A DNA stretch of 64,000 nt from Escherichia phage vB_EcoP_WFI101126, in sequence record NC_070991.1; one strand, written 5' to 3'. This document shows, in pieces, positions 3,790 through 29,323 of this stretch. The position numbers and the translations under genes were made by a program. How positions within the stretch are numbered: the stretch's first letter is position 1; each line of letters begins with the position of its first letter. The notes under the pieces were generated by a model. It was not told where the DNA came from and searched no databases. It was given only the letters and a program-made list of their open reading frames with translations.

Positions 3790-6033
3790 ATGGCTAAGCA
3801 AAAATATAGTGAAGAGGTGTTGGACGAATTACGTGTTGACCTTCAACGTCGTTTTAATTACGCTCAAGGCTACGTAGATATGGCTGTTAAGGGCTATGCT
3901 CGTGAAGCTTGGGAATATTTCTATGGTAACTTACCTGCACCAGTAACTGCTGGCAGCTCTAGTTGGGTAGATCGTACTGTTTGGGAATCTGTTAACGGTA
4001 CATTGCAAGATATTATTAACGTATTCTGTTCTGGTGATGAAGCAGTTACTTTCGTAGCTGACAACCAACAGGATTCTGATGCTGCTGATGTAGCAACTAA
4101 ATTAGTTAACCAAATTCTTCTGCGTGACAATCCGGGATACAACATTATCTCTTCTGCTGCACAAGAATGTCTGGTTACTCGTAACTCTTTTATCAAGTAT
4201 TATTGGGATGAACAAACTTCTACTCAAACCGAAGAGGCTGAAGGTGTACCACCGGAAGCATTGGCTGCATATGTTCAGGGATTAGAAGCTGGTGGACTCA
4301 AGAATCTGGAAATCTTCACTGAAGAAAATGAAGACGGTACAGTCGATGTTAAAGTTACTTATGAACAAACTGTTAAACGTGTGAAAGTTGAATACGTTCC
4401 TTCAGAGCAAATCTTTGTTGATGAACATGCTACCTCTTTTGCAGATGCACAATACTTCTGTCACCGTGTACGTCGTTCTAAAGAAGATCTGGTTGCTATG
4501 GGCTTCCCTAAAGATGAGATTGAAGCATTCAACGACTGGACAGACACGATGGATACCACTCAATCTACAGTTGCTTGGTCTCGTACTGACTGGCGTCAGG
4601 ATATTGATGCTGATATTGGTACAGATACCGAAGACATTGCTTCTATGGTTTGGGTTTATGAGCACTACATCCGTACTGGTGTTCTAGATAAGAATAAAGA
4701 GTCTAAACTCTATCAAGTTATTCAAGCTGGTGAGCATATCCTTCACACTGAAGAAGTAACTCATATCCCGTTTGTAACCTTCTGTCCTTATCCGATTCCG
4801 GGTTCCTTCTATGGTCAATCAGTCTATGACATTACGAAAGATATTCAGGATTTACGTACCGCGTTAGTTCGTGGTTATATTGATAACGTCAACAATGCTA
4901 ACTATGGTCGATACAAAGCTCTTGTTGGTGCATATGACCGTCGCTCTCTGCTTGATAACCGTCCCGGTGGAGTGGTTGAAATGGAACGTCAGGACGCTAT
5001 TGACCTGTTCCCATACCATAACCTACCTCAAGGTATTGACGGACTCCTAGGTATGTCTGAGGAGCTTAAAGAGACACGTACAGGTGTAACTAAACTTGGC
5101 ATGGGTATCAACCCTGATGTGTTTAAGAATGATAACGCTTATGCAACTGTAGGCTTGATGATGAATGCTGCACAGAACCGTCTCCGTATGGTATGTCGTA
5201 ACATCGCTCACAACGGTATGGTTGAATTGATGCGTGGTATTTACAACCTTATCAGAGAGAACGGTGAAGTACCTATTGAGGTACAAACCCCTCGTGGTAT
5301 GATTCAGGTTAACCCGAAACAATTACCAGCTCGTCATAATCTTCAAGTTGTTGTAGCTATCTCCCCTAACGAGAAAGCAGAACGTGCACAGAAACTGATT
5401 AGCTTGAAACAGCTGATTGCAGCAGATGCACAGTTAGCACCTCTCTTTGGTTTGGAGCAAGACCGTTACATGACTGCACAGATCTTTGAGTTGATGGGTA
5501 TTAAGGACACACATAAATACCTTCTGCCTCTGGAACAGTATCAGCCTCCAGAACCTTCTCCGATGGAAATCCTCCAGCTTGAGATGACTAAAGCACAGGT
5601 TGAGAACGTACAGGCTTCTTCTCAGAAGATGATTGCTGATGCATTCGACCAACGTGAACGTACTACATTCGAACAGCAGAAAGCTGCGGATGAATTAAGT
5701 CTGCGTCAGGAAGAGTTGCAGTTCAAGCAAGAAAATGCAGCAGATGCTATGACTCTGGAAAACCGTAAAGAAGATAACAATGCTACTCTGGAACAAGCTA
5801 AACACAAATTAGCTCTTATGCAACAGCAGGTCCGTCAGTATGAATCTGTACTGAAAGAATTGCAGATGGTTATGTCTCATCAGGTAGACCAAGAGAAGAT
5901 TGTTCAGCAATCTCGTGTTCAGGATAAAACTTTGGAACTCCAAAAGAAAGAAGCTAATGTACCTAAGAAAGAGCAACAAGCTACTCTCAAAGATTCACGG
6001 ATTCCAGGCAAACGTCTTGGAAGTAAAAACTAA
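3790..6033 (+). CDS. portal protein
   Basis: 747 aa directly downstream of large terminase; Q/E-rich coiled-coil C-terminus; call by position and size. Confidence 0.7.
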   Translation: MAKQKYSEEVLDELRVDLQRRFNYAQGYVDMAVKGYAREAWEYFYGNLPAPVTAGSSSWVDRTVWESVNGTLQDIINVFCSGDEAVTFVADNQQDSDAADVATKLVNQILLRDNPGYNIISSAAQECLVTRNSFIKYYWDEQTSTQTEEAEGVPPEALAAYVQGLEAGGLKNLEIFTEENEDGTVDVKVTYEQTVKRVKVEYVPSEQIFVDEHATSFADAQYFCHRVRRSKEDLVAMGFPKDEIEAFNDWTDTMDTTQSTVAWSRTDWRQDIDADIGTDTEDIASMVWVYEHYIRTGVLDKNKESKLYQVIQAGEHILHTEEVTHIPFVTFCPYPIPGSFYGQSVYDITKDIQDLRTALVRGYIDNVNNANYGRYKALVGAYDRRSLLDNRPGGVVEMERQDAIDLFPYHNLPQGIDGLLGMSEELKETRTGVTKLGMGINPDVFKNDNAYATVGLMMNAAQNRLRMVCRNIAHNGMVELMRGIYNLIRENGEVPIEVQTPRGMIQVNPKQLPARHNLQVVVAISPNEKAERAQKLISLKQLIAADAQLAPLFGLEQDRYMTAQIFELMGIKDTHKYLLPLEQYQPPEPSPMEILQLEMTKAQVENVQASSQKMIADAFDQRERTTFEQQKAADELSLRQEELQFKQENAADAMTLENRKEDNNATLEQAKHKLALMQQQVRQYESVLKELQMVMSHQVDQEKIVQQSRVQDKTLELQKKEANVPKKEQQATLKDSRIPGKRLGSKN

Positions 6034-6042
6034 GGACGTCGA

Positions 6043-6279
6043 ATGAACATTAGACATCAATTTAATAAAGAGCACGCCGCCGCTTTGGCGGCTCTCAACC
6101 TTAACGGCAGTCTTGACGCAGCATTAGAGGCATTGAAAGAAAGACTCATGACAGAGATAGTTCAAACAGAACCTCATGAGAATAAGAAACGCGAAGATTG
6201 TTATCAAAAGTATAAAATGGTTGGTAGCTTAAAAGAGGTCATAAAAGCTGCTATCAATAGTGCAGGAGATGTTTCATAA
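6043..6279 (+). CDS. hypothetical protein (78 aa)
   Basis: ORF track; between portal and scaffold genes. Confidence 0.4.
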   Translation: MNIRHQFNKEHAAALAALNLNGSLDAALEALKERLMTEIVQTEPHENKKREDCYQKYKMVGSLKEVIKAAINSAGDVS

Positions 6280-7364
6280 TGCCACAAGATAATTATATTG
6301 ACCCGAACGATTTTAAATCTTTCCTCCAACTGGATGACCTGAAAGGTTCTTTCAAAGAAGAACTCGGTCGATTAGAATCTGAACAAGAACCAGAAGTGGA
6401 CATTGACGATGAGTTCCCGGAAAAAGACGGTGACGATTTCGACTTTGATACCGACCTTCTCGGTGAAAGCGATGTGCTTAAGTTCGAAGATGAAGATGGT
6501 TGGGAAGATCATGACGAGGAAGGCGAAGTCGAAGAAGATGAGGACGACTCCGATGAAGGTGCTGAAGACACTGAAGCAGATGAGGAAGACTCAAGCGATG
6601 CAGGATATGAAGATGATTCTGCTGACGGTGATGGTGAAGTCTTTGATGTAGACTACGAAACCGTTATCACCCTTCCTGATGGACGTGAGATGACTATTGA
6701 AGAACTTTCTAATGGCTATCTTACTGGTGCTGATATGACAGAACGAGAGACTACTCTTCAGCGTCATATGGAAGCATTCGAGGAACGTGTAGTAGGTTTG
6801 AAGGATGTATTAGAACTAGCGTCTTTAGAAGCAGACCGAGTAATTGAAGATTATAACGGTTTTGATTGGGACAAGCTTGCAGTAGAAGATCCTCAAGCGT
6901 ATGTTGAAAACAAACGTTTCCTAGAGAAGTACACAGCTCGCCGTCAACAGCTTGAACAGGCTCAGGTCCGTATTAAGCAGGAAGCAGCAGCTAAAGAGCA
7001 GGAAGCTTTCCAAGCCAAGAGCATTGAATGTGTTAATATTCTGAAACGTGAGATTCCAAATTGGGATGAAAACTTATATCAAAACTTAATGCAATACGCA
7101 ATTGACTTAGGTGCTACTGAAGAAGAAGTATTGAAGGAAAACCGTCCGTCTATTTTCCTAGCTCTCCATAAAGCATACCAATTTGATAAAGGTAAGCAAC
7201 AGGTGATGGCTAAGATTAAACGTCCCGGTGCTCCACGCAAGGTTGTGAAGTCTGATGCTGCAAAGTCTCGCACTTCCAATAAGCCAGACAACGCTAAGGT
7301 TGCCAAGGCATTCGCAGAGGGTCGCGTTAGTCACGAAGACGCATTCAAATTCCTCGTAGATTAA
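6279..7364 (+). CDS. scaffolding protein
   Basis: 361 aa; extremely D/E-rich N-terminal third, coiled-coil-like remainder, located between portal and capsid genes. Confidence 0.6.
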   Translation: MPQDNYIDPNDFKSFLQLDDLKGSFKEELGRLESEQEPEVDIDDEFPEKDGDDFDFDTDLLGESDVLKFEDEDGWEDHDEEGEVEEDEDDSDEGAEDTEADEEDSSDAGYEDDSADGDGEVFDVDYETVITLPDGREMTIEELSNGYLTGADMTERETTLQRHMEAFEERVVGLKDVLELASLEADRVIEDYNGFDWDKLAVEDPQAYVENKRFLEKYTARRQQLEQAQVRIKQEAAAKEQEAFQAKSIECVNILKREIPNWDENLYQNLMQYAIDLGATEEEVLKENRPSIFLALHKAYQFDKGKQQVMAKIKRPGAPRKVVKSDAAKSRTSNKPDNAKVAKAFAEGRVSHEDAFKFLVD

Positions 7365-7405
7365 TCGACAAATTAATTATTTAATAGTATAGGAGCTAAC
7401 ATAAC

Positions 7406-8464
7406 ATGGCTAATCCAACTTTATTTGTATCGTATGACCAGAATGGTAAAAAACTTTCTTTTGCTAACTGGATTTCTGTTCTGTCCCCTCAGGATACCCC
7501 GTTCGTATCCATGACCGGTAAAGAGTCTATCAACCAGACTATCTTTAGCTGGCAGACCGATGCATTGGCAAGCGTTGACGCTAATAACGCACACGTCGAA
7601 GGCTCTCGTGCTGAAGACGGCGAAATGAAACCGACTGTTATCAAATCTAACGTTACTCAGATTCTGCGTAAGGTTGTTCGTGTTTCTGATACTGCTAACA
7701 CCACCGCTAACTATGGTCGTGGTCGTGAACTGATGTATCAGCTGGAGAAGAAAGGTAAAGAGATCAAACGTGATCTCGAGAAGATCCTTCTGTCCGGTCA
7801 GGCTCGTACCGACGTTCTGGCTGACCAGTACCTGACTAACTCTGCAACTGATCCTGATGTTGTTGGTCTGAACGACACCCATGCAGCTCGTAAGACTGGT
7901 GCTTTCCAGTTCCTGTGTGCTCACGGCGGTCTGTCTGGTGGTTTTGTTGACAAGACCAAAAATGGTCCTGCTGACCCGGATACTGGTGCAGTAACTGTTA
8001 AAGTTGCACAGAATGCTTCTAACCCGACCACTAACATTGGTTTCGACGAAGCTGATATCTTTGATATGACTCTGCAACTGTACACCGCTGGTTCTGAAGC
8101 AGATATCATCATGATTAACCCGGCTCATGCTAAGATCTTCGCTGGCCTGCAAGAAAATACTCAGGGTTCACGTAAGCGTATCTTTGAGAACACCAAGCAG
8201 TTCATCTACGAAGTTAACAGCATCACTGACCCGCTGGGCCAGAGCTACAAAATCATCGTTAACCGTTGGATGCCTACCGATGCAGTTTACTTCTTCCGTA
8301 GCGCTGACTGGACCCAGATGGTTCTGCGTGCTCCGAAACGTACTGAACTGGCTAAAGATGGTTCTTACGAGAAGTGGATGATTGAGATGGAAGTTGGTCT
8401 GCGTCACCGCAACCCGTACGCTTCCGGCGTTCTGTTCACTGCTGCGGGAAAGGCGGCGGCGTAA
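7406..8464 (+). CDS. major capsid protein
   Basis: 352 aa; position after scaffold; followed by Ig-like ORF and strong terminator. Confidence 0.8.
   Translation: MANPTLFVSYDQNGKKLSFANWISVLSPQDTPFVSMTGKESINQTIFSWQTDALASVDANNAHVEGSRAEDGEMKPTVIKSNVTQILRKVVRVSDTANTTANYGRGRELMYQLEKKGKEIKRDLEKILLSGQARTDVLADQYLTNSATDPDVVGLNDTHAARKTGAFQFLCAHGGLSGGFVDKTKNGPADPDTGAVTVKVAQNASNPTTNIGFDEADIFDMTLQLYTAGSEADIIMINPAHAKIFAGLQENTQGSRKRIFENTKQFIYEVNSITDPLGQSYKIIVNRWMPTDAVYFFRSADWTQMVLRAPKRTELAKDGSYEKWMIEMEVGLRHRNPYASGVLFTAAGKAAA
8446..8452 (+). promoter_or_regulatory. candidate -1 ribosomal slippery heptamer G_GGA_AAG in capsid frame
   Basis: GGGAAAG with codon phasing G|GGA|AAG, 13 codons before capsid stop; -1 frame open into the 8476..8988 ORF. 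Confidence 0.5.
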
Positions 8465-8475: not shown

Positions 8476-8988
8476 GTGACTGTTAGCCCTGCGTCTTTAG
8501 CAAGTCTAGAGACAGGGGCTACTCGGCAGTTCACTGCAAGCGCGGAGAAAAGTGATGGTTCTACCGAAACAACTGGCTTTACTTGGTCAGTGACAGGCGG
8601 TGGTTCTATCACTCAGTCGGGTTTGTATACTGCTCCGAGTGCGTCTCAATCCACTGATGTATCCATTACTGCAACTTTAGAAGGTGTTTCTGGTACAGCA
8701 ACCATTTCTGAAATTGTTGCTCCTGCTCCTACTATTGTAGCTAAGGGTCCAATTACGGGTAAAACTGGTGGTTCCTCCACTAATTTCACTACCATGTTTA
8801 CTGTAACTAATTCTGCTGCTGCGGATTACACGTTTGTTGTAACTCCTACAGAAGCTGGTACAGTGAGCGCCGCTGGTGCGTTAACCTTAGATGCTGCTGC
8901 AAGTGGCGAAGTTACTGTTAAAGCAAGTCTGACAGCTGACCCATCCATCAATGCAACATGCACTTTTACTGGTGTAACACCTGCTTAA
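8476..8988 (+). CDS. Ig-like (Big_2-type) domain; predicted C-terminal extension of capsid protein via -1 frameshift rather than an independent gene
   Basis: GTG start with no Shine-Dalgarno; in -1 frame relative to capsid; VTVSPASLASLETGATRQFTA resembles Big_2 domain starts. Confidence 0.55.
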   Translation: MTVSPASLASLETGATRQFTASAEKSDGSTETTGFTWSVTGGGSITQSGLYTAPSASQSTDVSITATLEGVSGTATISEIVAPAPTIVAKGPITGKTGGSSTNFTTMFTVTNSAAADYTFVVTPTEAGTVSAAGALTLDAAASGEVTVKASLTADPSINATCTFTGVTPA

Positions 8989-8994: not shown

Positions 8995-9019
8995 ACCCTG
9001 CCTTCGGGCGGGGTTTTTT
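8995..9019 (+). terminator. intrinsic terminator: 8-bp stem ACCCTGCC/GGCGGGGT, TTCG loop, T6
   Basis: Read directly, 7 nt after stop at 8988. Confidence 0.7.
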
Positions 9020-9089: not shown

Positions 9090-9842
9090 ATGGCAATGCC
9101 AGATGTTCAATACCCCATCAATACCTATGGGTGGCTAAAGAAGGCCGTGGCCCTCTGGGCAGATAGGGACGATGACGAATTTGTTAATCAAATTCCAAAC
9201 TTTATTAACTTTGCAGAGAAAGAGATTTATCGTAACTTACGTATCCCTCCTCTGGAAAAAGAAGTATATCTCAGTATTAAAAATGGAGTGGCTTTTATCC
9301 CTCCGGATTATTTACAAGCTCAGTGGATGATGAGAGCTAAAGATGGAGCAATATTCCAAGTAACTTCTCCAGAAGAGATAAGCTATCGTAAACAGCATGG
9401 AACAATTAACCCCTCTCACTGGAATAATCAACCTGTTAATTTTGCTCGTTTCGGAAGTCGTTTCTTGTTCTATCCACTGATTGATGCTGATACCCCTGTT
9501 TACCCTGAAGATGGAAGTCCTGCTATTCCAGCAGAGAACTCTGTAATTCTAAGCTATTATGCAGATCCTCCGGAGTTTCACGCAGACGAAGATACTAGTG
9601 CAATACTTACGATTGCTCCAGAACTTCTTCTATACTTTACCCTTAGGCATGCATGTCTTTTTGTTCAGGATGATAACGGTGTTCAAAAATGGTCTGCGTT
9701 AGGTAAGGCTATTCTTGATGAGATGGTTGAGCAAGATAAGAAACAGGAGTACTCAGGCTCTCCTATTGCGATACCTAATAATATGACCAGACTTCAGAGT
9801 AGCCTACCGGATATTTATGGAATACGTACCTCTAGAGTATAA
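9090..9842 (+). CDS. virion structural protein (possible head-tail adaptor)
   Basis: 250 aa; AAGGAGG Shine-Dalgarno; position between capsid and tailspike. Confidence 0.5.
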   Translation: MAMPDVQYPINTYGWLKKAVALWADRDDDEFVNQIPNFINFAEKEIYRNLRIPPLEKEVYLSIKNGVAFIPPDYLQAQWMMRAKDGAIFQVTSPEEISYRKQHGTINPSHWNNQPVNFARFGSRFLFYPLIDADTPVYPEDGSPAIPAENSVILSYYADPPEFHADEDTSAILTIAPELLLYFTLRHACLFVQDDNGVQKWSALGKAILDEMVEQDKKQEYSGSPIAIPNNMTRLQSSLPDIYGIRTSRV

Positions 9843-9851: not shown

Positions 9852-12800
9852 ATGATCAGTTACAACAACTCAGCACCTAATGCAGTTAATAACGTAGGTC
9901 AGTTTGGTGCTACAGAAGGCTCTATCGGTGCTTACAAATCAGCAGCTGAATATGCATCTGATTCCAAGTATTGGGCGATGCTTTCTCAAAAGAACTATAA
10001 CAACATTGGTGAGATTCTTAAAGAAGTAGAAAGACTTTATGCAGAAGGTAATTTATTAAAAGAAGATATTGAACAACTCAAATCTGATTTTGAAAACCAA
10101 AACCAAATACTTCTCGGACTCATTCAGCAAACCGGTGAAGCCATTGACAACACTAATACTGCTATTGGCGAAGCTAATGCAGCAACAGATCGAGCTAACC
10201 AAGCAGTGCAAGATGTTCTTGCTCAATTAGATAAGATTTCTAACATGTCTGTTGTTGCTACAACCCTTCCTCCGGGAACCCCTGCAACTGGGAGTTTTGA
10301 TAACAGTACAGGTGTTTTCTCTTTTGGTATCCCCGAAGGACAACCCGGTAAAGACGGCAAAGATGGAACGGACGGTACAATCTCTGATATTGGGGATGTT
10401 GCCATAAGCACCCCTGTGTCTGATGATTACGGATTCTTTGTGGATAAAGATGATGGTGGTTTGTATCGAACTCCGATGAGTGAGATCGCTAAGTTAGTTC
10501 CGGCAGTGACCAGTTTCAATGGTCGTACTGGTCCTGTTGTTCCAGCTGCTGGAGACTACACAGTAAGTCAAGTTACTGGCGCAGCTGCTTCTGGTGTTAA
10601 CAACGATATTAACCAGATTCGCGGGTTAACCACTGCCTTATCTGTAGCTCAGGGTGGTACAGGTGCTAAGAATGCAGATGACGCTAGAACTAACCTATCT
10701 GCAATGCTTGACTCTAAAACAGGGCTTGACGGAACAACAAATCTCAATGACTTAAATGGATTAAAAGCTGGGTTTTATTACCAACCTGCTTCTGCTAATG
10801 CAAAACCAGAACTTAACTACCCTACACAACTGGCAGGTTCTTTAGTAGTAGTCAAGACAGGTGCAGGTACAGGATATTCATGTAAGCAGGTTTATAGTTT
10901 ATACAACAACCCTAACGTAACCTACTCTCGTGTACTTAACGCCAGTGCAGGCCCAACCTCTCCTTGGTCTGAATGGGTAAGACATGTGGCCCTAAGTAGA
11001 GTAGAAGAGGGATCTTCCGCTACTTACATGTACTCCTCTTACGCTCCGGATGCTCCTAGACTTCAGGTTTGGACTAGTGGTTTGTGGGGGTGTCATAACG
11101 GTACTAACTGGGTTCCTTTGTCCTTAGCTCAAGGTGGCACTGGAGCAACATCAGCAGCTGGTGCTCGAGCTATTTTAAACTTGGATAGGTTTGTAGCAAC
11201 AGCATCAGAAACTCAGATGCTCTCCTCTTCTGGAGACAAGAAGGTTTTCATTAACAGTAATAATAACACATGGGGATGTTATGACATTACCAACTCTCGC
11301 TTTATCCCACTAGGGATCAATCAGGGAGGTACTGGAGCAACCACTGCTGATGCAGCTCGTATGTCTCTTGTTGCTGCTAAGAGTGGTGCTAACTCTGACA
11401 TAACCTCTATGACTAATGTGGTTAATTTCACTCAGTCTCCAACAATCCCCGATGCAGTGTCTTCTAATGAGCCTGTTGCTCTTGGGCAACTTTCCACAGA
11501 AACTGCCGCTTTGGATACGAAGATAACAGAAGCTAAGGATGCTGCTGCTGCTGCTAACACTAATGCTAATAGCAGAGTTCTCACTTCACAACTATCAGAT
11601 ACATCTGAAGTTGCTCAAGGGGACGCTTTAGTGGGGGTTATGGCTCCTTTTACTGGTGCTACTGCTCGTACTCAGCATGATAAAAACCTTGATGTGATCT
11701 CTATAGCTGACTTTGGTGGTGGTACAAACTGGTCAGATAACGGTCCAGCTCTTCAGAGAGCAATCACATATGCAGCTTCTGCATCTGGTAACAACCGTGG
11801 TATGGTTTATATCCCTCCGGGAGTGTGGAATTTCACTTCTGGCGTAACTGTTCCGGGTAACGTTTCTATTAAAGGGGCTGGGGTTGGTTCAACCCAATTA
11901 AAAATAAATTCTGCTAACTTAGTTTTATTTGATGTTGGTAACGGAACCAATAACCCGAACAACGTCAGTATCTCTGATTTACATGTTCTTGTAAGTTCCA
12001 CTTGCACAGCAAACCCTTTATTCCGTTTTAGAAATGGATATAATTGTGGTATTGATAACATCCGTGTTGATGGGCCTTGGTATGACCTTATCCACTTCCG
12101 TGGTGGTGCTGCTCAGTTCGTCTACCGAGTCTCGGATAGTATCCTAAACGGTACTTCAGCTAGCCGTCATACGATTACCATTGGTGAATCTTCATCAGAC
12201 GGTGTTGTTCAAGATGTTTTCTTAACAAACTTAGTCCTTGGTGGAAGAACTACCGGATACGGTGTTTATGAAAAATACTCTTCTGGAGTTTATGCGACTA
12301 ATGTTGATTCTCTCAACGTTAACGTAGGTTGGGCTTGGGAACCTGCTACTGGATGTTACTGTAAAGGAAGTTTCTACACTGCAATTCTTGGTGATACTAA
12401 CTCTACAGCTGGTCTTAGAATTAGACCTCAGGCTGGTACAACAGTTAATGACTTAACTTTCAATGGATGTTGGGTAAGTTCCGCTGGGTCTAACAGTTCT
12501 CATCATGGTTTGATCATTGATAGTTCTGCTGGTACTGTAGCAAACATTAGCTTTAATGGTTTAACTGCTGTGAACAACAAAGGTCATGGTGTCTACATTA
12601 ATGGATCTACTACTGGATACGGTTATGAGTTCACAAACCTTAGTGTCTCTAATAACAGTCAAGCTGGTGCTTCTCTGTGTAGTGGTATGAAAATTGTAGC
12701 CGGTTCTTCTCACATAAACATTTCTAATGGTCATGCGGGTGGTACTCTTGGTTTAGGTACAAACAACCAAGCCTATGGTATTGACGTTGAGGCTGGTACT

Positions 12801-13142
12801 GGCAACTCTATTAAAATTGTAAACATGGAGATGCACAATAACAAGCTCGGGGCTATGAATTTTGGGGCAACCGGTCCTTACAACAGGATTGAAGGGTGTT
12901 CACCTTTTAGAACCAGGATGAAAGGGGCAGTAGAGCTTAAAAATGGTACATCCTCTATTACAGTAAACCCAGGTTTGAACAGACCATTTGGTGGTGCTGA
13001 TGTTCAGGTTACTCCTACTACAGATCTAGGCGCTTTGCGTTATTGGGTTACTCAGAGTGGTAACAGCTTTACTATCAACACCAACGCTAATGTCAGTGGG
13101 GGTCAATGGTTCTCTTGGGCTGTTGATGCATCTTATAGTTAA
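9852..13142 (+). CDS. tailspike / tail fiber with pectate-lyase-like beta-helix domain
   Basis: 1096 aa; N-terminal coiled coil; three repeats around QGGTGA (LSVAQGGTGAK, LSLAQGGTGAT, GINQGGTGAT); IADFGGGTNWSDNGPALQRAI...GMVYIPPGVW typical of beta-helix depolymerase tailspikes. Confidence 0.75.
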   Translation: MISYNNSAPNAVNNVGQFGATEGSIGAYKSAAEYASDSKYWAMLSQKNYNNIGEILKEVERLYAEGNLLKEDIEQLKSDFENQNQILLGLIQQTGEAIDNTNTAIGEANAATDRANQAVQDVLAQLDKISNMSVVATTLPPGTPATGSFDNSTGVFSFGIPEGQPGKDGKDGTDGTISDIGDVAISTPVSDDYGFFVDKDDGGLYRTPMSEIAKLVPAVTSFNGRTGPVVPAAGDYTVSQVTGAAASGVNNDINQIRGLTTALSVAQGGTGAKNADDARTNLSAMLDSKTGLDGTTNLNDLNGLKAGFYYQPASANAKPELNYPTQLAGSLVVVKTGAGTGYSCKQVYSLYNNPNVTYSRVLNASAGPTSPWSEWVRHVALSRVEEGSSATYMYSSYAPDAPRLQVWTSGLWGCHNGTNWVPLSLAQGGTGATSAAGARAILNLDRFVATASETQMLSSSGDKKVFINSNNNTWGCYDITNSRFIPLGINQGGTGATTADAARMSLVAAKSGANSDITSMTNVVNFTQSPTIPDAVSSNEPVALGQLSTETAALDTKITEAKDAAAAANTNANSRVLTSQLSDTSEVAQGDALVGVMAPFTGATARTQHDKNLDVISIADFGGGTNWSDNGPALQRAITYAASASGNNRGMVYIPPGVWNFTSGVTVPGNVSIKGAGVGSTQLKINSANLVLFDVGNGTNNPNNVSISDLHVLVSSTCTANPLFRFRNGYNCGIDNIRVDGPWYDLIHFRGGAAQFVYRVSDSILNGTSASRHTITIGESSSDGVVQDVFLTNLVLGGRTTGYGVYEKYSSGVYATNVDSLNVNVGWAWEPATGCYCKGSFYTAILGDTNSTAGLRIRPQAGTTVNDLTFNGCWVSSAGSNSSHHGLIIDSSAGTVANISFNGLTAVNNKGHGVYINGSTTGYGYEFTNLSVSNNSQAGASLCSGMKIVAGSSHINISNGHAGGTLGLGTNNQAYGIDVEAGTGNSIKIVNMEMHNNKLGAMNFGATGPYNRIEGCSPFRTRMKGAVELKNGTSSITVNPGLNRPFGGADVQVTPTTDLGALRYWVTQSGNSFTINTNANVSGGQWFSWAVDASYS

Positions 13143-13238: not shown

Positions 13239-13457
13239 ATGAAAATGATGAAACAAGCTGTATATGGTTTAGTTTGCTTAGGGGCTGGGGTTGCTGTATC
13301 AACAGCAGTTCCTGTTAGTGCAGTCCATCCATTAGTCACTACCCCTGCTCCAGTGGAGAAACTTAGTTCACAATGCAAGCAGCGAACCATTCAAAACAAC
13401 TTGGTTGTTATTTGCCCTGATGCTGAATCTAACGCTCTGAGAAAGATACTACCTTAA
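13239..13457 (+). CDS. small protein with N-terminal hydrophobic segment, directly upstream of endolysin (lysis-associated candidate)
   Basis: 72 aa; single hydrophobic stretch LVCLGAGVAVSTAVPVSAV; GGAG Shine-Dalgarno. Confidence 0.4.
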   Translation: MKMMKQAVYGLVCLGAGVAVSTAVPVSAVHPLVTTPAPVEKLSSQCKQRTIQNNLVVICPDAESNALRKILP

Positions 13458-13486
13458 TTTAAAGGGACCATGAAAGGAGGTTAGAA

Positions 13487-13978
13487 ATGGATAACGTCGC
13501 ATTGCCACCTGTACAACTAAACTTAAGCCCAGCTGGAATGGAATTCATCATGAAGCATGAGGGTATGAGAACCAAGGCTTATAAAGATTCCGCAGGTATC
13601 TGGACGATTTGTGTAGGGGCTACGCGCGATATGAATGGTTATCCGGTTAGGCAAGGATTAACATATTCTATAGAGGATTGTCTAGCTCTGCTAGATAGAG
13701 ACACACAAGACTCTGTTCGTGCTACTCAGAAAAATATAAAGGTTCCTTTGCTCATTCATGAGTTCGATGCACTCACCTCTTTCAACTTTAATGTTGGTAG
13801 TGGGGCACTGAGCACATCTAAGCTAAGGAAAGTTATCAATGGAGATGTTAAGGGTGATATATACTCAGAATTTCTACGTTGGGATAAAATTACGGTGAAA
13901 GGAGAGAAGCGGAGAAGTCAGGGTCTTCATAACAGAAGGGTTGCGGAAGCTGATCTTTATACCGAAGGTAAATATTAA
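13487..13978 (+). CDS. endolysin, T4-lysozyme-like (GH24) muramidase
   Basis: 163 aa; FIMKHEGMRTKAYKDSAGIWTICVGAT matches the lysozyme E...D...T catalytic region; no N-terminal signal-anchor. Confidence 0.85.
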   Translation: MDNVALPPVQLNLSPAGMEFIMKHEGMRTKAYKDSAGIWTICVGATRDMNGYPVRQGLTYSIEDCLALLDRDTQDSVRATQKNIKVPLLIHEFDALTSFNFNVGSGALSTSKLRKVINGDVKGDIYSEFLRWDKITVKGEKRRSQGLHNRRVAEADLYTEGKY

Positions 13979-13990: not shown

Positions 13991-14794
13991 TTGGCTATTG
14001 AAACTAATGCGGTCGTGATTACCGACCTGAACCCGCTCTATCCCAGAGATAGGGATTATATCTACGAAGGGGCGGCCCAAATCCGCCTCATTAAACAAAC
14101 ATTAAAGAACACATTCCCTAATGTCACTGAGCCTGTTGAGATTGATTCTGATACCTTTAAGATTATGTCAGAGAAACTCAAATTCACTGGTGATGCGATG
14201 GATGTTGGCGGTCTTATGATTAAGAATGCTGCTCCGGGAACTGGAGATAAAGATGTTGTTACTAAAGGCCAGATGGAGGCTTTTATGAACAACTGGATGG
14301 AAAATAAAGTATTCCGTATTGGGTCTTACTATATCACTGAAGAAGATGTTAATCCGGGTGATTCTATCTCTCTTGGGTTTGGCTCTTGGGCTAAAGTTAC
14401 TGGCGTTATCATGGGTACTGGTGTGGTCAACCCTGATGGTACAGTTCCTAATGCCTCTAGGGTTGAGTTTACTTCTGGGGCTACTGGTGGTAGGATCTTC
14501 AACACAGTTCAGACAGAGAACTTACCGTTGATGACTATTAATGGTTCGAGCTTTTCTGTTTCCAGTAACACTCACGCACACAACATTAACTTTGGTCGTG
14601 GGGATGCTAGCGGTCACAACAGTTCCCCTAACTGGTATAGTCCCGGTTCTGGATTTACCCACAGAACAGAGTCTGATACTCACACCCACACAATATCTGG
14701 TTCTGTTAGTTTTGGACGTGACGACATATCTCGTCAACCTATTAACACTTTGCCACCATTCAGAGCGGCTCACATTTGGAGACGTATTAGCTAA
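13991..14794 (+). CDS. tail fiber-like / tail-associated protein (TTG start)
   Basis: 267 aa; GGAGG 6 nt upstream of TTG; Gly/Ser/Thr/Asn-rich, fiber-like composition. Confidence 0.5.
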   Translation: MAIETNAVVITDLNPLYPRDRDYIYEGAAQIRLIKQTLKNTFPNVTEPVEIDSDTFKIMSEKLKFTGDAMDVGGLMIKNAAPGTGDKDVVTKGQMEAFMNNWMENKVFRIGSYYITEEDVNPGDSISLGFGSWAKVTGVIMGTGVVNPDGTVPNASRVEFTSGATGGRIFNTVQTENLPLMTINGSSFSVSSNTHAHNINFGRGDASGHNSSPNWYSPGSGFTHRTESDTHTHTISGSVSFGRDDISRQPINTLPPFRAAHIWRRIS

Positions 14795-14803
14795 GGAGGA
14801 ATT

Positions 14804-17800
14804 ATGGCGTTGTATCCAATAAAATCACTCGGTGCTGTCGGTGTTATTGCTGACCAAGCACCTACTGATTTAGCTCCTAATGCTTTCACTAACGCTATAA
14901 ACGCTCGGTTTGTTGAGCAGAGAGTTTTTAAGACGGGGGGCAACGCCCCTCTTTCTTACGTAGATGAAGATAAAGACTTAACCCCTCTGTCTTTCATATC
15001 TATGCCTTTCGATTACTATAGTGCAGGTAATAGCTTTCTTATTGTAGGCACTGACAAGAAGCTATATAAACTGACAGATGAAAGCTTGACTGATATCAGC
15101 AGAAAAGTCGCTACGGTGACTAAAAAAGCCTCTGCTACTATCAAAATATATCCTGTGGTCTCTAGGATTACTCCTAAAGAGTCTACTATTTCCATGAACT
15201 TCAATCAAACTAAATCTTTAGAAGTTACAATCTCTCCGGAAGATGCTAATAACCCTGAACTTGTTTGGAGTGTTAGTAACTCTTCTTACGGTCAGATTAC
15301 TGTAGACCCTACTGACTCCAAGAAAGCCTCTTTAACCTCTTTGAATAAAGAAGGCAATCTCGTAGTTACAGTTCAGACTAAAGACGAGTCTGTATCAGCT
15401 CAAATTGCTGTCAACATCATCGATGGAGATTCAGGTATCTTCTTGAGTCAAGATACTGTAACAGTTCGTAAAGGTGGTAATACCACAATAACTGCGGTGA
15501 CTGGTAAAACTCCTGTAAGTTGGTCCACTACTAACGGTTCTATCGTTTCTGTGACTCCTAATGCTAACACACTCACGGCAGTGCTTGTTGCTAATGGAGA
15601 AGGAACAGCAACTATCACAGCGGATAACGGAACTAAAACTGCATCATGCGTTGTTAATGTAATACCACAGATTGACAGTATCACTCTGAGTCAAACAGAT
15701 GTTACCATTAACAGAGGGACTCAATATATTCTTACAGCTACAGTATCTCCAACGAATGCTCCTAATAAAAACATAACATGGACTTCCTCTAACCCGAATA
15801 TTGCTACAATATCTGGTACAGGTACAGAGGCAACCATTACTGCGATTACAGCTGGCTTCACTGAGATTACCGCTACTACTCAAGAAGGCAGCAGAACCGC
15901 TGTCTGTACAGTTCGTGTAGATTTGTCTGGAAGGATGATGAGAACCTCTCTTATGGCTATGTCTTCTACTGAACCAGATGCTCCAGAAGTGGTTGAGGAT
16001 GTAGTAGTTCCTGAGTCAGAAGAGGTTTTGTATTTTGCATCACCTTCCTCTGGGATAGATACTACTGGAATGTCTGAAGGGAATAGCTTCTATGATTATT
16101 CAAACGTGGATGACATGGAGGGTTTTGCAAGAGCTTCTCTTTTTGCCACCCCTTTAGATTCTGTAACGTTAGATGTAGTTAGTGCTTCTTTGGATGTAGG
16201 AGAGGAGATTGTTATTACAGCTACAGCTTCTCCAGAGGGTGATTATTCTTACTTGTGGTCTGTTGATAAGACTGGGTATGTATCGACTACTTCTGTAACT
16301 GGCAAGTCTATCAAACTTACAGCTCTTCGTAAAGGTGAGATTAACATAACATGTTCTGTCAGTCAAATGACACAGAGGGATTATGATGCGTTTGATGATT
16401 ACCCTTGGTATCATGCTGTTATATCAAACTGTGTTGTTGCTACTACTCACTATGAAACCCCTCAAGTAAAAGAGTTCGAATCTGAATATTTTACCGATCT
16501 TCCGGGATGGGGAGAACAAACAGTAGTGGATAACGATGGGAACCCCTCGGTTAAGAAGTTCAACTGGAAGTGTGAAAGGGTTCGCTCTTTTAATAACAGA
16601 CTCTTTGCTCTGAATATGAGGGAGTCAAACGCTTCTGGTGTTACAACTAACTACCCGCTCCGTCTTCGTTGGTCTAATTTTGCTAATGAGAACAAAGCTC
16701 CTACACTGTGGGATGACTTTGCCTATGATCGTTTAGTAACATCTGACTTAGCTTCGAATATAGTGGGACAGACTGAGGCTCTGGAAAATGGTTATGCTGG
16801 TTACATTGATTTAGCAGACTCTAACGGGAGTTTAATTGATATCCTACCTCTTAAAGATTACTTGTTCGTTTACACAGAGTTTGAAACGTACATTGGTTCT
16901 CCAACTAATAACACGTATCAACCACTGATGTTCAAGAAACTCTTTAATGACTCTGGTATCCTTGCCCCTGAGTGTGTAGTAGAAGTTGAAGGCAGTCACT
17001 TCGTTGTTACTCAGAACGACGTGATTCTACACAACGGTGCAACTAAGAAGTCAATTGCTTCCAACCGTGTCAAGAATATGTTGATTAATGAGATATGTCT
17101 GGTCAACCCGTTAGCTACCAGAGTTCACTTACATCAAGATAAAAAAGAGGTTTGGATTCTTTATGTAGGTCCGGGAGAGCCTAAGGAAAGCTATGCTTGT
17201 ACTAAAGCTGCTGTATGGAATTACGAGTTTGATACTTGGTCTTTCCGTACAATACCTTACGCTCAGTGTATTGGTTTGGTTGATCCCCCTGTTCTTGAGA
17301 GAGGTCCAATCTGGGCTGATTTCCAAGAAATCTCTTGGGATGATCCGTCAATAAAAGAGCTAGTCTGGAGGAAAGATGCAACAAACTTCCGTCAGAGGAT
17401 AACCATAGTAGGTTCTTTCTTACGTGGATTCTATCAAGTGGATATTGGTGCTTTAGATTATTTCTATGATAGACTCAATGATACTGTTATAGAAAAACCC
17501 TTGGAGATGAGGTTAGAGAGAACAGGCATTGATTTTGATAATGTCACTAATGAATGGAATCAGAAGCATGTCAACAGATTCAGACCTCAAACAACAGGTT
17601 CTGGAACTTATGTATTCGAAGCAGGAGGCAGTCAATTCTCAAACGAATATGGTCATCCACACACATCTAAAACATACACAATCGGTGTTGATAGGCATGT
17701 CTCTGTGAGACTGAACCATCCATACCTTTTCTATAATGTTATAGATAATGATGTTAACAGTAATGCTGCTATCAATGGTTTAACGATAGAGTTTGCTGTT

Positions 17801-17815
17801 GGCGGGCGGAGATAA
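14804..17815 (+). CDS. large tail structural protein with multiple bacterial Ig-like (Big_2) domains
   Basis: 1003 aa; repeated Big_2-like segments (e.g. ITLSQTDVTINRGTQYILTATVSPTNAPNKNITWTSSNPNIATISGTGTEATITA). Confidence 0.65.
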   Translation: MALYPIKSLGAVGVIADQAPTDLAPNAFTNAINARFVEQRVFKTGGNAPLSYVDEDKDLTPLSFISMPFDYYSAGNSFLIVGTDKKLYKLTDESLTDISRKVATVTKKASATIKIYPVVSRITPKESTISMNFNQTKSLEVTISPEDANNPELVWSVSNSSYGQITVDPTDSKKASLTSLNKEGNLVVTVQTKDESVSAQIAVNIIDGDSGIFLSQDTVTVRKGGNTTITAVTGKTPVSWSTTNGSIVSVTPNANTLTAVLVANGEGTATITADNGTKTASCVVNVIPQIDSITLSQTDVTINRGTQYILTATVSPTNAPNKNITWTSSNPNIATISGTGTEATITAITAGFTEITATTQEGSRTAVCTVRVDLSGRMMRTSLMAMSSTEPDAPEVVEDVVVPESEEVLYFASPSSGIDTTGMSEGNSFYDYSNVDDMEGFARASLFATPLDSVTLDVVSASLDVGEEIVITATASPEGDYSYLWSVDKTGYVSTTSVTGKSIKLTALRKGEINITCSVSQMTQRDYDAFDDYPWYHAVISNCVVATTHYETPQVKEFESEYFTDLPGWGEQTVVDNDGNPSVKKFNWKCERVRSFNNRLFALNMRESNASGVTTNYPLRLRWSNFANENKAPTLWDDFAYDRLVTSDLASNIVGQTEALENGYAGYIDLADSNGSLIDILPLKDYLFVYTEFETYIGSPTNNTYQPLMFKKLFNDSGILAPECVVEVEGSHFVVTQNDVILHNGATKKSIASNRVKNMLINEICLVNPLATRVHLHQDKKEVWILYVGPGEPKESYACTKAAVWNYEFDTWSFRTIPYAQCIGLVDPPVLERGPIWADFQEISWDDPSIKELVWRKDATNFRQRITIVGSFLRGFYQVDIGALDYFYDRLNDTVIEKPLEMRLERTGIDFDNVTNEWNQKHVNRFRPQTTGSGTYVFEAGGSQFSNEYGHPHTSKTYTIGVDRHVSVRLNHPYLFYNVIDNDVNSNAAINGLTIEFAVGGRR

Positions 17816-24481: not shown

Positions 24482-24516
24482 GTCCTGCCTTCTATAATGT
24501 ATATAGGGGGTAGGAC
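24482..24516 (+). promoter_or_regulatory. 8-bp stem hairpin (GTCCTGCC/GGTAGGAC) whose loop carries TAATGTATAT (24495-24504); T-rich tail follows
   Basis: Read directly; about 38 nt upstream of ATG 24542. Confidence 0.4.
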
Positions 24517-24541
24517 ATTTTTATTTATAAAAGGAGACGTT

Positions 24542-27500
24542 ATGGCTAACATTAAACCGTGGGAAGAAGCTTCCAAAGCTCCTGCGTATCTGAATGCCTC
24601 TCCGGAGCAACAAGCTCAAATGAGAGAACAATATAAGGCAGCAGGTGGCTCTATTCCTGAGGAACAACCAGTAGCACAACCACAACAAGAAGAACGTGGT
24701 GCTATAGGTGAGTTTGCTCAAGGTGTGTCAAATGCTCTTCAATCTGGTGGTGCAAATATTGCAGCTAGTGCTGCTAAAGGTATTGGTGGTTTAGTTGAGA
24801 TTGGTGAGAATCTAGCTGGAACACAAACTAGTTATGGTAAGCGTATCCAAGAGAACTCTCAGAACCTTCTGAAAGAACGTATGGATAAGATTGAGGATGG
24901 GGTTGGTAAAACTGTTGGTCAGTATGCTGGCGTTGCTGGTGATATTGGTATGACTGTTGCTAATCCATTGGCTGCTGCTGCTATCATCGCAGGTCGTGAG
25001 ACAGGTCGTGCGTATGCAGACCAAACACCTGAAGAGGGAGAAGATAAATCTATTCTAGATGCGGCCTTAGTTGGTGGTGCTAACTATGCGGCTCAGAGAA
25101 TCCTTCCGGGTGCTGTTGGTACAGCTGAGTCCACACTTGGACGTATCGGTCAGAACGTTGCTAGTAACGCAGTGGCTGGTGCTAAAGGTGGCGCTCTTGT
25201 AGGTGCTGCTGAAGCTCAGAACAAGCATGGAGATGATACAACCTTTGCTAATGTATTAGAGGGTGCTATCGAAGAAGGTGCTATGGGTGCTGCATTTGGT
25301 GGTGCAGTTGGTGGGGTTCATGGTTTGATTAGCCGTCCAGACTCTGCTGTCTTCAAGAATACTCCAGAGTATGCGAAGACTGATATTGCTGCTGATGACG
25401 AACTAATTCGCAGTGCTAAGAATATTGATGAATTGAAAGAAGCCTACTCTAAAGCTGAAACTGCTAACGCTGCTTCTGCTCTGAATCTTCTGGATGAGAA
25501 TGGATTCCGTATTACAGATGCTGTTGCTGTAGATTCTCCTGCTGCTCAGCGTATTCTCAATACTGACCAAGCTCGCGCTGAGAAAGCTGCTTCCATTCAG
25601 AAAGAACATTCCAACATTCCGGGCCTTAACCCTTTAGCTTCTCCTGCTAAGACTCGTGGTAAAGCATTCGCTGATAACGAGCACAACCAGAAGCAGGCTG
25701 TTGCTATGAAGGATGCAATGGCTGATTACACCAAAGACAACACGAAAGCTCTTACAGATGTTCTAGATAATCTAGACCGTGAATTAACATCTCTCCGAGC
25801 TTCTGGTGATTTTACTGGTAGTCCGATTGATATTAAGAATCGTACACAAGCCGACCGTGACTTCATTGATGCTTACAAGACTTTCTACAACGAAGCAAAT
25901 CGATTCAAAGCTCGTGATGGTGAAGACTTTAATAACTTTGTAGAGAAAGCTGCTGAACTACAGAAGATGGCTGATAATGTTTCTCCAGAGATGAAGAAAG
26001 CTATTGGTGGGTTGAAGAAACTGAAAGGTATGCCTGAAGGTTTTAATCCTATCCAAGATGCTTACACTCTGAACAATACAGCTAAGTTCATGAGCAACCA
26101 AGATCGTGGTTGGACTTCCCTGACTGATGATGGATTCCGTGAGGCTTCTTCACCTAGTCTGGTAATGAACACTCTTGGTGCTGCTAAGTATGCTCTGAAT
26201 CGCTTCTCTTCTCAGCGTGCTCGCTCTCAACGTGTTAAGCAACAAGAGTCTAACAGTGAAGCTATCCGCTCTCTTGCTCGTGGTGATTTGGAAGTTGCTC
26301 GTGCTAAATCTACTGCCGAGGAAGCTCGTGCTAGGATGGAAGAAGAACCAGTTGTTGATGACATTAAATTTAAGACGCAAAATGACGTAGAAACCGAACC
26401 GGTTCGGGAGCCTTCTTCTAGTACTGTGACGGAAGAAAATCTTCCTTCTTCTGCTCCTCAAGAAACTCCTCTTACAGCTCGTGATTTAGTTGCTCAAAGA
26501 CGTGCTATCCGTCAGGCTGAACAGCGTCGCGCTGAAGAAGAGGCATTGGCTGCTCAAGAAGCTCCGGTCGAACAAGCTCCACAGGCTGAACCTCTCCCTG
26601 CTCGTAACCCTTTAGAGGAACGTCGTGCAATGGAACAGCAACGTGCTCAAGAAGAGGCCGCACAGGCTCCAGAACCCACCGTAGAGGAACCAACAGTCAA
26701 AGCTGAGCCATTACCTGCCCGTGCTCCTAAAGCTCCTAAGGAGGCTGTACAGGACGTTAAACCGGCAAGTGGTGTAGAACGTTTAGCTGCTATGTCTAGT
26801 GCTGCTCGTCAGGCTACCAAAGATCGTGCAGAACGTTTTGCTCGTTCTCTGTACTCTAAGGCTGCTAAGGCTAAAGCTACTGCTGAAAACTTCTTGGCTT
26901 ATAAAGGTGATCCTAAGGAATTGATGCGTCGTATTCGTCAGGAAGATAATGCTATCAACACTGAACGTCATGAAGAAATGGCTCGTAACCAGCTGGCTTC
27001 TCAGCAAGGTATTGCTACTGCTAAGAACAACACTGTACGAACTAATTTTGCTGAATGGGTTAAAGAACGTGGTCTGCCAGAAGACATTGCTACTAAGGCA
27101 TTACGTGCTGAAGAGAAAGGTTTAGGTGGGAACGTAACTAACTTGGATAGTCTGAAACGTCGTGCTGAAAGGTTGTATCAGAAGCAGCGTGAGGATGAGT
27201 TTGATAGACTGTACCAACAAGCTCTAGAAGAGAATAAAGCTTTCGATAACAAGAATGCTCCTAAGCTGGCTGACCAGAAGAAAGAGCTTCAGTCTGAGAT
27301 TGATGCTTTGATTGATTCAGAACCTTTACGTCCTGCTCAGAAAGATGCTATGCGTAAGCTGATGAATGATTTTGTAGATGGGAAGTTTAAATCTTCAGAG
27401 AAGGCTGGTAGGGAAGAGGCTTTGGAAGTTGGTCAGATGAAGGATATTTGGGATGGGTTTATTAATACCTATAACAGAGAGGTGAATGCCTTCAACAAAG

Positions 27501-28998: not shown

Positions 28999-29153
28999 AT
29001 TTGTTTCTAAGTTTTAAAAACCATCAAATTCGTCATACATCCCAATTTTCTTCAGAGGTCTGGACGTTCATCTTCAAAGCACCCTGAGATTCCTCCGTAG
29101 AACCAATCTGATTTACTTCCAAGAATAACAACCTATTCATTCATATAACCCCC

Positions 29154-29315: not shown

Positions 29316-29323
29316 GTCAGTTC

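Follow-up and report, generated by a model that had tools for sequence, protein, structure and literature searches.

What does the kuravirus Escherichia phage vB_EcoP_WFI101126 carry at the tip of its long tail fibre, a domain that holds host polysaccharide or one that cuts it? The question is raised by the gene next to the adaptor gene in the window analysed here, the whole 64,000-nucleotide stretch of record NC_070991.1. A preliminary description placed at this locus, at 9852-13142, a tailspike with a pectate-lyase-like beta-helix and three QGGTGA repeats. The coordinates are exact, being those of an open reading frame with an ATG start. The frame encodes a mosaic, with an adaptor-binding end (aa 1-242), a shaft (aa 243-580) and a tailspike module (aa 586-1096).

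9852..13142, plus strand: long tail fibre with a tailspike tip (ATG start, 1096 aa, from the list of open reading frames)

By exact-sequence look-up the product is QBQ76440.1 / YP_010674194.1 / UniProt A0A482MTH6, which databases list as 'tail fiber protein' or 'Pectate lyase superfamily protein', and its top BFVD match is 100% identical and of equal length. The gene is already catalogued and the same prediction is already public. Inside the frame, the only candidates for an overlapping or antisense gene, two minus-strand frames of 62 and 84 aa, are both unsupported and were rejected. Around the gene, predicted promoter and terminator sites are no commoner than in shuffled sequence.

One gene in the place of two

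The window shares 96-97% identity with Ptacy1532 and Ptacy1479, two other kuraviruses, and about 91% with phiEco32. Its genes run in the order adaptor, fibre, holin, endolysin, short fibre, nozzle, and the fibre gene has the following neighbours:

9090..9842, plus strand: adaptor protein gene, directly 5' of the fibre gene, annotated 'adaptor protein' in Ptacy1479
13239..13978, plus strand: holin (13239..13457) and endolysin (13487..13978), directly 3' of the fibre gene (list of open reading frames, synteny)
13991..17815, plus strand: short tail fibre (13991..14794, 267 aa) and nozzle (14804..17815, 1003 aa), which serve the second stage of attachment

In SU10, the adaptor is the docking site of the long tail fibres, and residues 1-90 of the proximal fibre protein dock on it (PMC9509320). 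Two features of the kuravirus long-tail-fibre proximal protein are found here, a homologous adaptor-binding N-terminus and a position right after the adaptor gene. SU10 gp12 (PDB 7z47) matches the whole chain with an E-value of 1.2e-73, the best stretch pairing aa 1-242 with residues 1-229; phiEco32 gp14 is 53% identical across 1-230, and phrog_10305 matches the same end (E 4e-74). This homology identifies the first ~240 aa as the end of the fibre, conserved among kuraviruses, by which it docks on the adaptor ring. A short run of collagen-like triplets lies within it, its match to collagen being weak (E 0.51).

9852..10577, plus strand: virion-anchoring end and proximal shaft, aa 1-242 (homology to SU10 gp12 / phiEco32 gp14)
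10338..10376, plus strand: collagen-like Gly-X-Y triplets, aa 163-175, GQPGKDGKDGTDG (read from the translation)

The likeness to SU10 gp12 and phiEco32 gp14 covers this N-terminus, the position after the adaptor gene and shaft units of the type 'WGC...QGGTGA...AR.NL'; the other end of the chain differs. SU10 and phiEco32 end their proximal fibre in PF25670 and add a second, distal protein with an S74 chaperone (in phiEco32, gp14 and gp15), whereas here a beta-helix module on the one chain takes the place of both, and the shaft houses an inserted pyocin-knob-like domain. PF25670 (Phage_tail_C_2) was not found in the WFI101126 protein by Pfam scans, and no distal-fibre gene separates the fibre gene from holin and endolysin. 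The protein therefore represents a variant architecture of the kuravirus fibre family, common to FH3 and the Ptacy phages, in which a single gene stands for the two of phiEco32 and SU10 (proximal and distal fibre). Korf et al. noted that WFI101126 has one tail-fibre gene fewer; in the set that they tested, the phage plaques on a single strain (their Fig. 4 spans 64 strains) (PMC6563267).

QGGTGA repeats belong to the shaft

Three QGGTGA repeats had been described ahead of the beta-helix domain, and they are found at aa 267-272, 427-432 and 491-496 (nt 10650, 11130 and 11322), against 0.0005 occurrences expected by chance from the protein's own composition. Similarity reaches past the hexamer: local alignments of the flanks exceed shuffled sequence by z = 5.5 to 15, and the highest-scoring one, between copies 2 and 3 (z = 15), reads WGCxxxTNxxxPLxxxQGGTGATxAxxARxxL. 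DNA identity among the copies is only 64-74%, so the repeats are old and maintained at the protein level and do not stem from recent duplication.

10581..10700, plus strand: repeat unit 1, aa 244-283, GAAASGVNNDINQIRGLTTALSVAQGGTGAKNADDARTNL, with QGGTGA at nt 10650-10667 (motif search)
11007..11186, plus strand: repeat unit 2, aa 386-445, a small beta unit ending in LWGCHNGTNWVPLSLAQGGTGATSAAGARAILNL, with QGGTGA at nt 11130-11147
11187..11381, plus strand: repeat unit 3, aa 446-510, ending in TWGCYDITNSRFIPLGINQGGTGATTADAARMSLVA, with QGGTGA at nt 11322-11339 (z = 15 against unit 2)
10749..11006, plus strand: pyocin-knob-like domain, aa 300-385, between repeat units 1 and 2 (profile match)
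11490..11579, plus strand: predicted long helix, aa 547-576 (helix 323-352 of the low-pLDDT mid-region model)

Unit 1 matches SU10 gp12 457-507 (E 2.9e-8) and also PhiM1 gp47 280-325, and a unit like the second is present in phiEco32 gp14 487-572. QGGTGA shaft motifs thus recur in SU10 gp12, phiEco32 gp14 and PhiM1 gp47, and also in lambdoid side tail fibres. Since the motif occurs in fibres without a beta-helix, an assignment of QGGTGA to the spike was rejected; it is a generic tail-fibre shaft repeat. The shaft (aa 243-580) consists of repeated modules, each made of a small beta unit, QGGTGA and a short helix, with the pyocin-knob-like domain inserted among them.

An AF2 monomer model of aa 225-603 has low confidence (pLDDT 56.4). 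Its PDB fold matches (WD40 and antibody-like, TM < 0.12) are meaningless, and the model was dropped except for hints of secondary structure. These include a helix directly after the motif of unit 1, itself of low confidence, and the long helix at aa 547-576, which is probably a trimeric coiled-coil neck joining shaft to spike. By analogy with SU10 gp12, and given how poorly the shaft models as a monomer, the protein is expected to form a homotrimer.

The knob-like assignment comes from sequence and profile similarity. A side-tail-fibre protein of an E. coli prophage (UniRef 'pyocin knob domain-containing') is 58% identical to aa 263-446. A four-sequence profile of aa 284-405 matches R1/R2 pyocin fibres over aa ~304-375 (6cl5, E 4e-5; 6ct8, 7e-4; 6cl6, 2e-3); searched as a single sequence, the region gives no pyocin-fibre match. 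In the R-type pyocin fibre (PDB 6cl5, 6cl6) the knob lies at the distal end, whereas here it is internal to the shaft, where it is possibly a second, lectin-like glycan-binding site.

A tailspike module with a predicted beta-helix fold

Pfam and NCBIfam scans of the full-length protein gave nothing useful, PF12708 being unreported there, and three pieces taken from the N-terminal and middle parts matched Pfam only at the level of sub-threshold noise. With aa 575-1096 scanned alone, PF12708 (Pect-lyase_RHGA_epim) covers aa 616-828 with 32.9 bits, the cut-off being 27, and E 7e-8. The same family is matched by 46 of 63 homologues of the C-terminal module. The PF12708 fold takes in epimerases as well, such as AlgE4 and AlgE6.

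11607..11912, plus strand: tailspike neck, cap helix and first rungs, aa 586-687 (homology to Sf6 tailspike 131-234)
11697..12896, plus strand: predicted right-handed parallel beta-helix of ~10 rungs, pectate-lyase-like (PF12708), aa 616-1015 (Pfam, AF2, Foldseek)
12909..13139, plus strand: C-terminal all-beta domain, aa 1020-1096 (strands 448-518 of the model)

An AF2 monomer of the C-terminal 520 aa is a right-handed parallel beta-helix (pLDDT 93.3, pTM 0.89). The hallmarks read earlier in the sequence, IADFGGG (aa 618) and YIPPGVW (aa 653), delimit a stretch (aa 618-659) that opens this predicted helix and lies inside the PF12708 match. Both the HMM score, above the gathering cut-off, and the predicted fold place the module in the pectate-lyase-like superfamily. 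The body at aa 616-1015 is presumed, on the model, to bind and cleave polysaccharide, and the following domain, with conserved W1065, F1073 and W1089, is probably a trimerisation or cap domain.

Foldseek returns 169 PDB matches of the model at E ≤ 1e-3, led by the tailspikes of Sf6 (E 1.5e-13) and HK620 (E 2e-11), both at TM 0.5-0.64, and including AlgE4/6, CBA120 TSP3 and Det7. Among the matches listed, each whose fold is familiar is a beta-helix carbohydrate enzyme or a tailspike. The BFVD fold search gives 'pectate lyase superfamily' tailspikes. In sequence, Sf6 residues 131-234 align with aa 586-687 (phmmer E 6e-11; hhalign probability 97.7%). As in tailspikes of the P22/Sf6/HK620 type, a virion anchor is followed by a neck and a beta-helix body, and a C-terminal beta domain comes after the helix, as it does in Sf6 and HK620. 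Identity to these two over the helix is only 13-18%, however, and the anchor here is a 580-aa fibre shaft in place of a P22-type head-binding domain. The tailspike label stands for the C-terminal module and falls for the protein as a classical short tailspike; the protein is a long-tail-fibre shaft of ~580 aa tipped by a tailspike module.

The beta-helix fold, the Sf6 homology and the place directly after the adaptor gene together bear out the view of a receptor-binding protein with a pectate-lyase-like beta-helix. It sits in the kuravirus receptor-binding position, and its best fold matches are the O-antigen-cleaving Sf6 and HK620 tailspikes; Sf6 gp14 is an endorhamnosidase (PDB 2vbk, 4urr).

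A modification of polysaccharide without cutting, by an epimerase or esterase for example, is very improbable. The A-modules of the mannuronan C5-epimerases AlgE4 and AlgE6 are among the better matches (TM 0.65-0.70, target-normalised; profile E 1e-20), but their profile homology is limited to profile positions 152-262, which correspond to the cap at the N-terminal side and the initial rungs. The active-site motif of AlgE enzymes, YG(F/I)DPH(D/E), is not seen in the fibre translation, and no phage tailspike of this fold is known to be an epimerase.

Binding or cutting

Four acidic residues of the module stand out by conservation.

12213..12452, plus strand: candidate catalytic acids D788, D819, D848 and D867 (codons at nt 12213, 12306, 12393 and 12450; conservation)

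D848 is invariant in 63 homologues, down to 24% identity, and an acidic residue is kept at D788 in 52, at D819 in 56 and at D867 in 46 of the 63. The four positions have a rung-like spacing and would fall on successive rungs. A catalytic role is suggested for them by this conservation, and the fold, taken with the invariant Asp848 and its acidic neighbours, points to depolymerase activity of the module. The catalytic residues of Sf6, E366 and D399, are unmappable onto the fibre because the profile alignment with the Sf6 tailspike ends at Sf6 residue 243.

That no catalytic residues are mapped by alignment would suit a beta-helix that is a non-catalytic adhesin, binding host polysaccharide or another glycan reversibly without cleaving it. 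Such behaviour has precedent among relatives: for the K5-lyase-like fibre domain of ES17, glycan binding (heparan sulfate) was detected and cleavage was not (PMC7885116), and SU10-type kuravirus fibres are described as without any enzymatic activity (PMC10743462). An adhesin is nevertheless unlikely here, as an invariant Asp and three conserved rung-spaced acids across 63 homologues are hard to square with differing glycans, and the closest structural neighbours are all active enzymes. A single-chain kuravirus long fibre whose tailspike module binds and cleaves a strain-specific surface polysaccharide is, on sequence and model, the probable reading. The term 'halo' is absent from the source paper of WFI101126 (Korf et al., PMC6563267). 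Among other kuraviruses, ES17 and vAPECPW12 have depolymerase-like fibre domains, and vAPECPW12 makes halos.

A module shared across phage types

The module has 1219 relatives at E ≤ 1e-3, and its homologues carry various N-termini: T7-tail (PF03906), TSP1/Gp66 (PF18668), endosialidase-N (PF12218) and P22 head-binding. Judged from these sequences, aa 586-1096 is a portable tailspike module that T7-like, Drulisvirus and TSP-type phages carry as well. Ptacy1479 and Ptacy1532 have the same module at 98% and 96% aa identity, respectively. With other kuravirus fibres there is a recombination junction at about aa 623. FH3, 1-6af and 1-6bf, whose long fibres are likewise products of a single gene, have, of the C-terminal part, only aa 574-623 in common with the WFI101126 fibre. 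The FH3 fibre, which lacks the knob domain, is otherwise collinear to aa 623 and unrelated beyond, where endosialidase-like and S74 chaperone signals appear. The published ES17 fibre (ES17-TFP) has a depolymerase-like domain of K5-lyase-like type (PMC7885116), and this domain is absent among the relatives listed for the WFI101126 module.

Rather than an O-antigen endoglycosidase, the module could be a capsule (K-antigen/exopolysaccharide) depolymerase, possibly a lyase, for which the chances are appreciable but short of even. The closest named non-kuravirus relative is the tailspike of the Drulisvirus Minorna, a 'pectate lyase superfamily protein' of 506 aa that is a spike alone and whose gene, in this T7-like phage, follows the lysis cassette; it is 43% identical over 95% of the C-terminal module, and its predicted structure nearly superposes (TM 0.90, rmsd 1.9). 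Most phages of the genus Drulisvirus target capsules. An endosialidase N-terminal extension is present in 7 of 63 homologues, the fold search also gives K1 and K64 capsule lyases or depolymerases, and the sister phages Ptacy1479 and Ptacy1532 were isolated on an avian pathogenic strain. Avian pathogenic E. coli strains are often capsulated. A literature search on Ptacy1479, Ptacy1532 and the host APEC40 found no relevant paper. Against a capsular substrate, the best structural matches, Sf6 and HK620, are O-antigen hydrolases. Furthermore, all tested Gordonclarkvirinae needed O-antigen, and ES17-resistant mutants had lost it (PMC11990801).

A proposed route from polysaccharide to outer membrane

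For a fibre that cleaves, the following course may be proposed. Six trimeric fibres per virion would hold the beta-helix out to a strain-specific polysaccharide, O-antigen or capsule, which would be bound along the groove of the beta-helix and then cleaved by acids on neighbouring rungs, for which D819 and D848 are the candidates, with D788 and D867 to either side. Repeated cycles of binding and cutting would lower the virion to the outer membrane, where the tail needle, short tail fibres and nozzle would take over, as in SU10. The tailspike module would set a narrow host range.

It is tempting, if rather speculative, to view the fibre as a two-site receptor-binding device, in which an internal knob-like lectin and a distal catalytic tailspike act together and, in this kuravirus lineage, enzymatic descent replaces the reversible binding by a two-protein fibre of the SU10 type. 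If so, enzymatic descent through the polysaccharide would position the tail needle and trigger nozzle formation, and depolymerase-driven penetration would be tied to the kuravirus tail-extension mechanism.

A shaft fused to a tailspike-type beta-helix is an ordinary phage host-range device, here one that, from sequence and predicted fold, most likely binds and cuts host surface sugar. Current understanding is unchallenged, kuravirus fibres with depolymerase-like domains being already published. The protein could supply a serotype-specific depolymerase or provide a scaffold on which kuraviruses are retargeted. It probably determines the host range, a narrow one, of this E. coli kuravirus, and it illustrates plainly how unrelated phage types exchange receptor-binding modules at a junction in a conserved neck.

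The fibre gene and its anchor

The gene under study encodes a virion-anchored fibre whose tailspike-type beta-helix belongs to the pectate-lyase-like superfamily. It is listed here with its neighbours and its parts.

9090..9842, adaptor gene, immediately upstream of the fibre gene
9852..13142 (+), fibre gene
13991..14794, short fibre gene
14804..17815, nozzle gene
aa 1-242, N-terminal anchor
aa 243-580, shaft
aa ~300-385, pyocin-knob-like domain, between repeat units 1 and 2
aa 586-1096, tailspike module

The coordinates given in the preliminary description agree exactly with the ORF list, in which the gene starts with ATG on the + strand and codes for 1096 aa. By exact-sequence look-up the protein is identical in every residue to QBQ76440.1/YP_010674194.1 ('tail fiber protein', vB_EcoP_WFI101126). 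Its UniProt entry, A0A482MTH6, reads 'Pectate lyase superfamily protein' and recurs in the BFVD fold library at 100% identity, and this exact protein is thus already public under tail-fibre and pectate-lyase-superfamily annotations. WFI101126 is a podovirus of C3 morphotype that forms plaques on only one strain of the tested set (Fig. 4 of the genome paper covers 64 strains; PMC6563267).

The fibre is anchored by aa 1-242, which correspond to gp12, the proximal long-tail-fibre protein of SU10 (PDB 7z47; whole-chain E 1.2e-73), share 53% identity with phiEco32 gp14 and contain a brief stretch of Gly-X-Y triplets (aa 163-175). In SU10 the gp12 trimer attaches to the adaptor dodecamer through its first 90 residues (PMC9509320).

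Repeat units, shaft and knob

The three QGGTGA repeats reported from the sequence are present at aa 267, 427 and 491, against 0.0005 occurrences expected from the protein's own composition. The similarity reaches past the hexamer: WGCxxxTNxxxPLxxxQGGTGATxAxxARxxL is common to units 2 and 3, whose alignment scores z = 15 over shuffles, and unit 1 aligns with either of them at z = 5.5-7.5. The copies are only 64-74% identical as DNA, which marks them as old repeats kept at the protein level. The units are not peculiar to this fibre: G-ANSDI-..-GLTT-LS--QGGTGA----AR-NL occurs in SU10 gp12 (residues 457-541), phiEco32 gp14 (residues 465-572), Pectobacterium phage PhiM1 gp47 (PDB 8vbx) and side tail fibres of E. 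coli lambdoid prophages. By tblastn the shaft region matches 304 phage records, some by the motif and others by the knob region, including T5-like, rV5-like, Dhillonvirus, Acinetobacter and Campylobacter phages. The poor AlphaFold2 monomer model of the shaft (pLDDT 56) places a short helix right after each GGTGA, small beta units in between and a long helix (aa 547-576) after the units, which are probably general-purpose modules of a trimeric fibre shaft.

The knob domain shares 58% identity with a prophage fibre protein (UniRef name 'pyocin knob domain-containing'), and a small profile built from it hits R1/R2 pyocin fibres in their knob region (6cl5, E 4e-5). It is absent from the otherwise collinear fibre of kuravirus FH3.

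The tailspike module and its probable substrate

The motifs IADFGGG (aa 618) and YIPPGVW (aa 653) stand as first described. Residues 586-687 are homologous to residues 131-234 of the Sf6 tailspike (E 6e-11; hhalign probability 97.7%), and in a scan limited to the C-terminal part aa 616-828 score above the gathering threshold of Pfam PF12708, a family that a Pfam scan of the full-length fibre did not report. An exhaustive HMMER search found 1219 relatives at E <= 1e-3. The AlphaFold2 model, built with a 63-sequence alignment (pLDDT 93.3, pTM 0.89), shows a cap helix, about 10 short-stranded rungs and an all-beta domain at the C-terminus. The predicted fold is thus the beta-helix that had been claimed for this protein, and not another fold. 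Its top Foldseek match in the PDB is the Sf6 tailspike (E 1.5e-13), followed by HK620 and then the AlgE4/6 A-modules; further matches are the Det7, CBA120 TSP3, LKA1 and phi297 tailspikes and the K1 and K64 capsule depolymerases. In BFVD the matches are 'pectate lyase superfamily' tailspikes, and the tailspike of Drulisvirus Minorna nearly superposes on the module (TM 0.90). An epimerase-like modifying role, as the AlgE matches might suggest, is unlikely, since that similarity is limited to the cap and first rungs.

The beta-helix would bind and cleave a strain-specific surface polysaccharide. Across 63 homologues, with identity down to 24%, D848 is invariant, and an acidic residue occupies D819 in 56, D788 in 52 and D867 in 46. 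In the model and alignment, D819 and D848 lie 29 residues apart, near the ends of long strands on consecutive rungs. The catalytic pairs of the P22, Sf6 and HK620 tailspikes are spaced by roughly 33 residues, which the D819/D848 spacing resembles. It is possible that the beta-helix binds without cleaving, binding alone having been detected for kuravirus ES17 (PMC7885116), but the conserved row of acidic residues speaks against this.

The favoured substrate of the putative cleavage is O-antigen, since all tested Gordonclarkvirinae need it, ES17-resistant mutants have lost it (PMC11990801) and the best fold matches are Sf6 and HK620. These same points weigh against capsule, a real though less probable alternative kept in play by the Drulisvirus relative and by endosialidase-type N-termini among the homologues. 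Once the virion has descended through the polysaccharide layer, its needle, short fibres and nozzle would take over as in SU10.

Neighbouring genes

The short fibre (267 aa, TTG start) carries two His-x-His motifs (SNTHAHNINF, SDTHTHTISG), which fit the histidine pairs proposed as Fe2+ ligands in the short tail fibre of SU10 (PMC9509320). Upstream, 11 nt separate the major capsid gene (7406..8464) from an ORF of 170 aa (8476..8988) that begins with GTG and lies in the -1 frame with respect to the capsid gene; its phiEco32 annotation is 'Ig domain containing protein'. A kuravirus paper describes normal and extended isoforms of the capsid protein, arising by ribosomal slippage (PMC9965538), and this ORF may therefore be that extension, not a gene of its own. 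A hairpin resembling a terminator lies just behind it (8993-9016). In FH3 and Escherichia phage 1-6af an additional 513-nt ORF lies after the Ig-like ORF and ahead of the adaptor gene; the window and phiEco32 have none there.

A very large ORF (24497..28963, 1488 aa) closes the structural module and presumably encodes an ejection or internal virion protein of the kind described for SU10. At ~29000..30100 both the coding strand and the GC skew change over: ORFs >= 150 aa are all + up to 28963 and all - from 30125, except 7421..8152 (-) within the capsid gene, and the cumulative skew has its maximum near 30 kb. This is presumably the border between late structural genes and early/middle modules. 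ARAGORN found no tRNA genes in the 64-kb window; the one tRNA given for WFI101126 in a published table may lie in the ~13 kb of genome beyond it.

One fibre gene and module exchange

Between its adaptor and holin genes phiEco32 has two long-fibre genes, gp14 (880 aa, ending in Phage_tail_C_2) and gp15 (722 aa, with an S74 intramolecular chaperone), whereas WFI101126 has one, directly followed by the holin gene. Already in 2019 this phage was noted to have a fibre gene missing: it 'seems to harbor one less' than other phiEco32-like phages (PMC6563267). The elbowed 700 Å fibre of SU10 is made of gp12 and gp13 (PMC9509320). FH3 shares the single-gene layout (1236 aa). In 1-6af the long-fibre gene (4501..8210), a single gene in FH3 and the window, stands in the annotation as two ORFs of 549 nt and 3123 nt with 38 nt between them; the gene may truly be split, or the cause may be a frameshift or a sequencing error.

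Published work already covers halo-forming kuraviruses and kuravirus fibres with depolymerase-like domains. The additions made here are a domain map, a junction at ~aa 623, the inserted knob and a set of candidate catalytic residues: useful annotation and no discovery.

The first 25 kb of the window are 96-97% identical to the sister kuraviruses Ptacy1532 and Ptacy1479 and ~91% to phiEco32. The fibre gene falls to 88.9% nt against Ptacy1532 and 92.3%, in two pieces, against Ptacy1479; within it the shaft diverges most (85.8% aa against Ptacy1532), the spike being 96-98% identical. This divergence beyond the flanks points to mosaic exchange within the gene even between sister phages. Among homologues the same beta-helix module occurs on T7-type (PF03906) and TSP1/Gp66 (PF18668) N-termini, behind endosialidase N-terminal extensions (PF12218) and on a P22 head-binding domain; in Minorna it stands alone (43% identity). 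The FH3 fibre is collinear with that of WFI101126 to aa 623 (DFGG motif) and unrelated beyond, and FH3, 1-6af and 1-6bf have only aa 574-623 of the C-terminal part in common with it. This makes the conserved neck the exchange junction.
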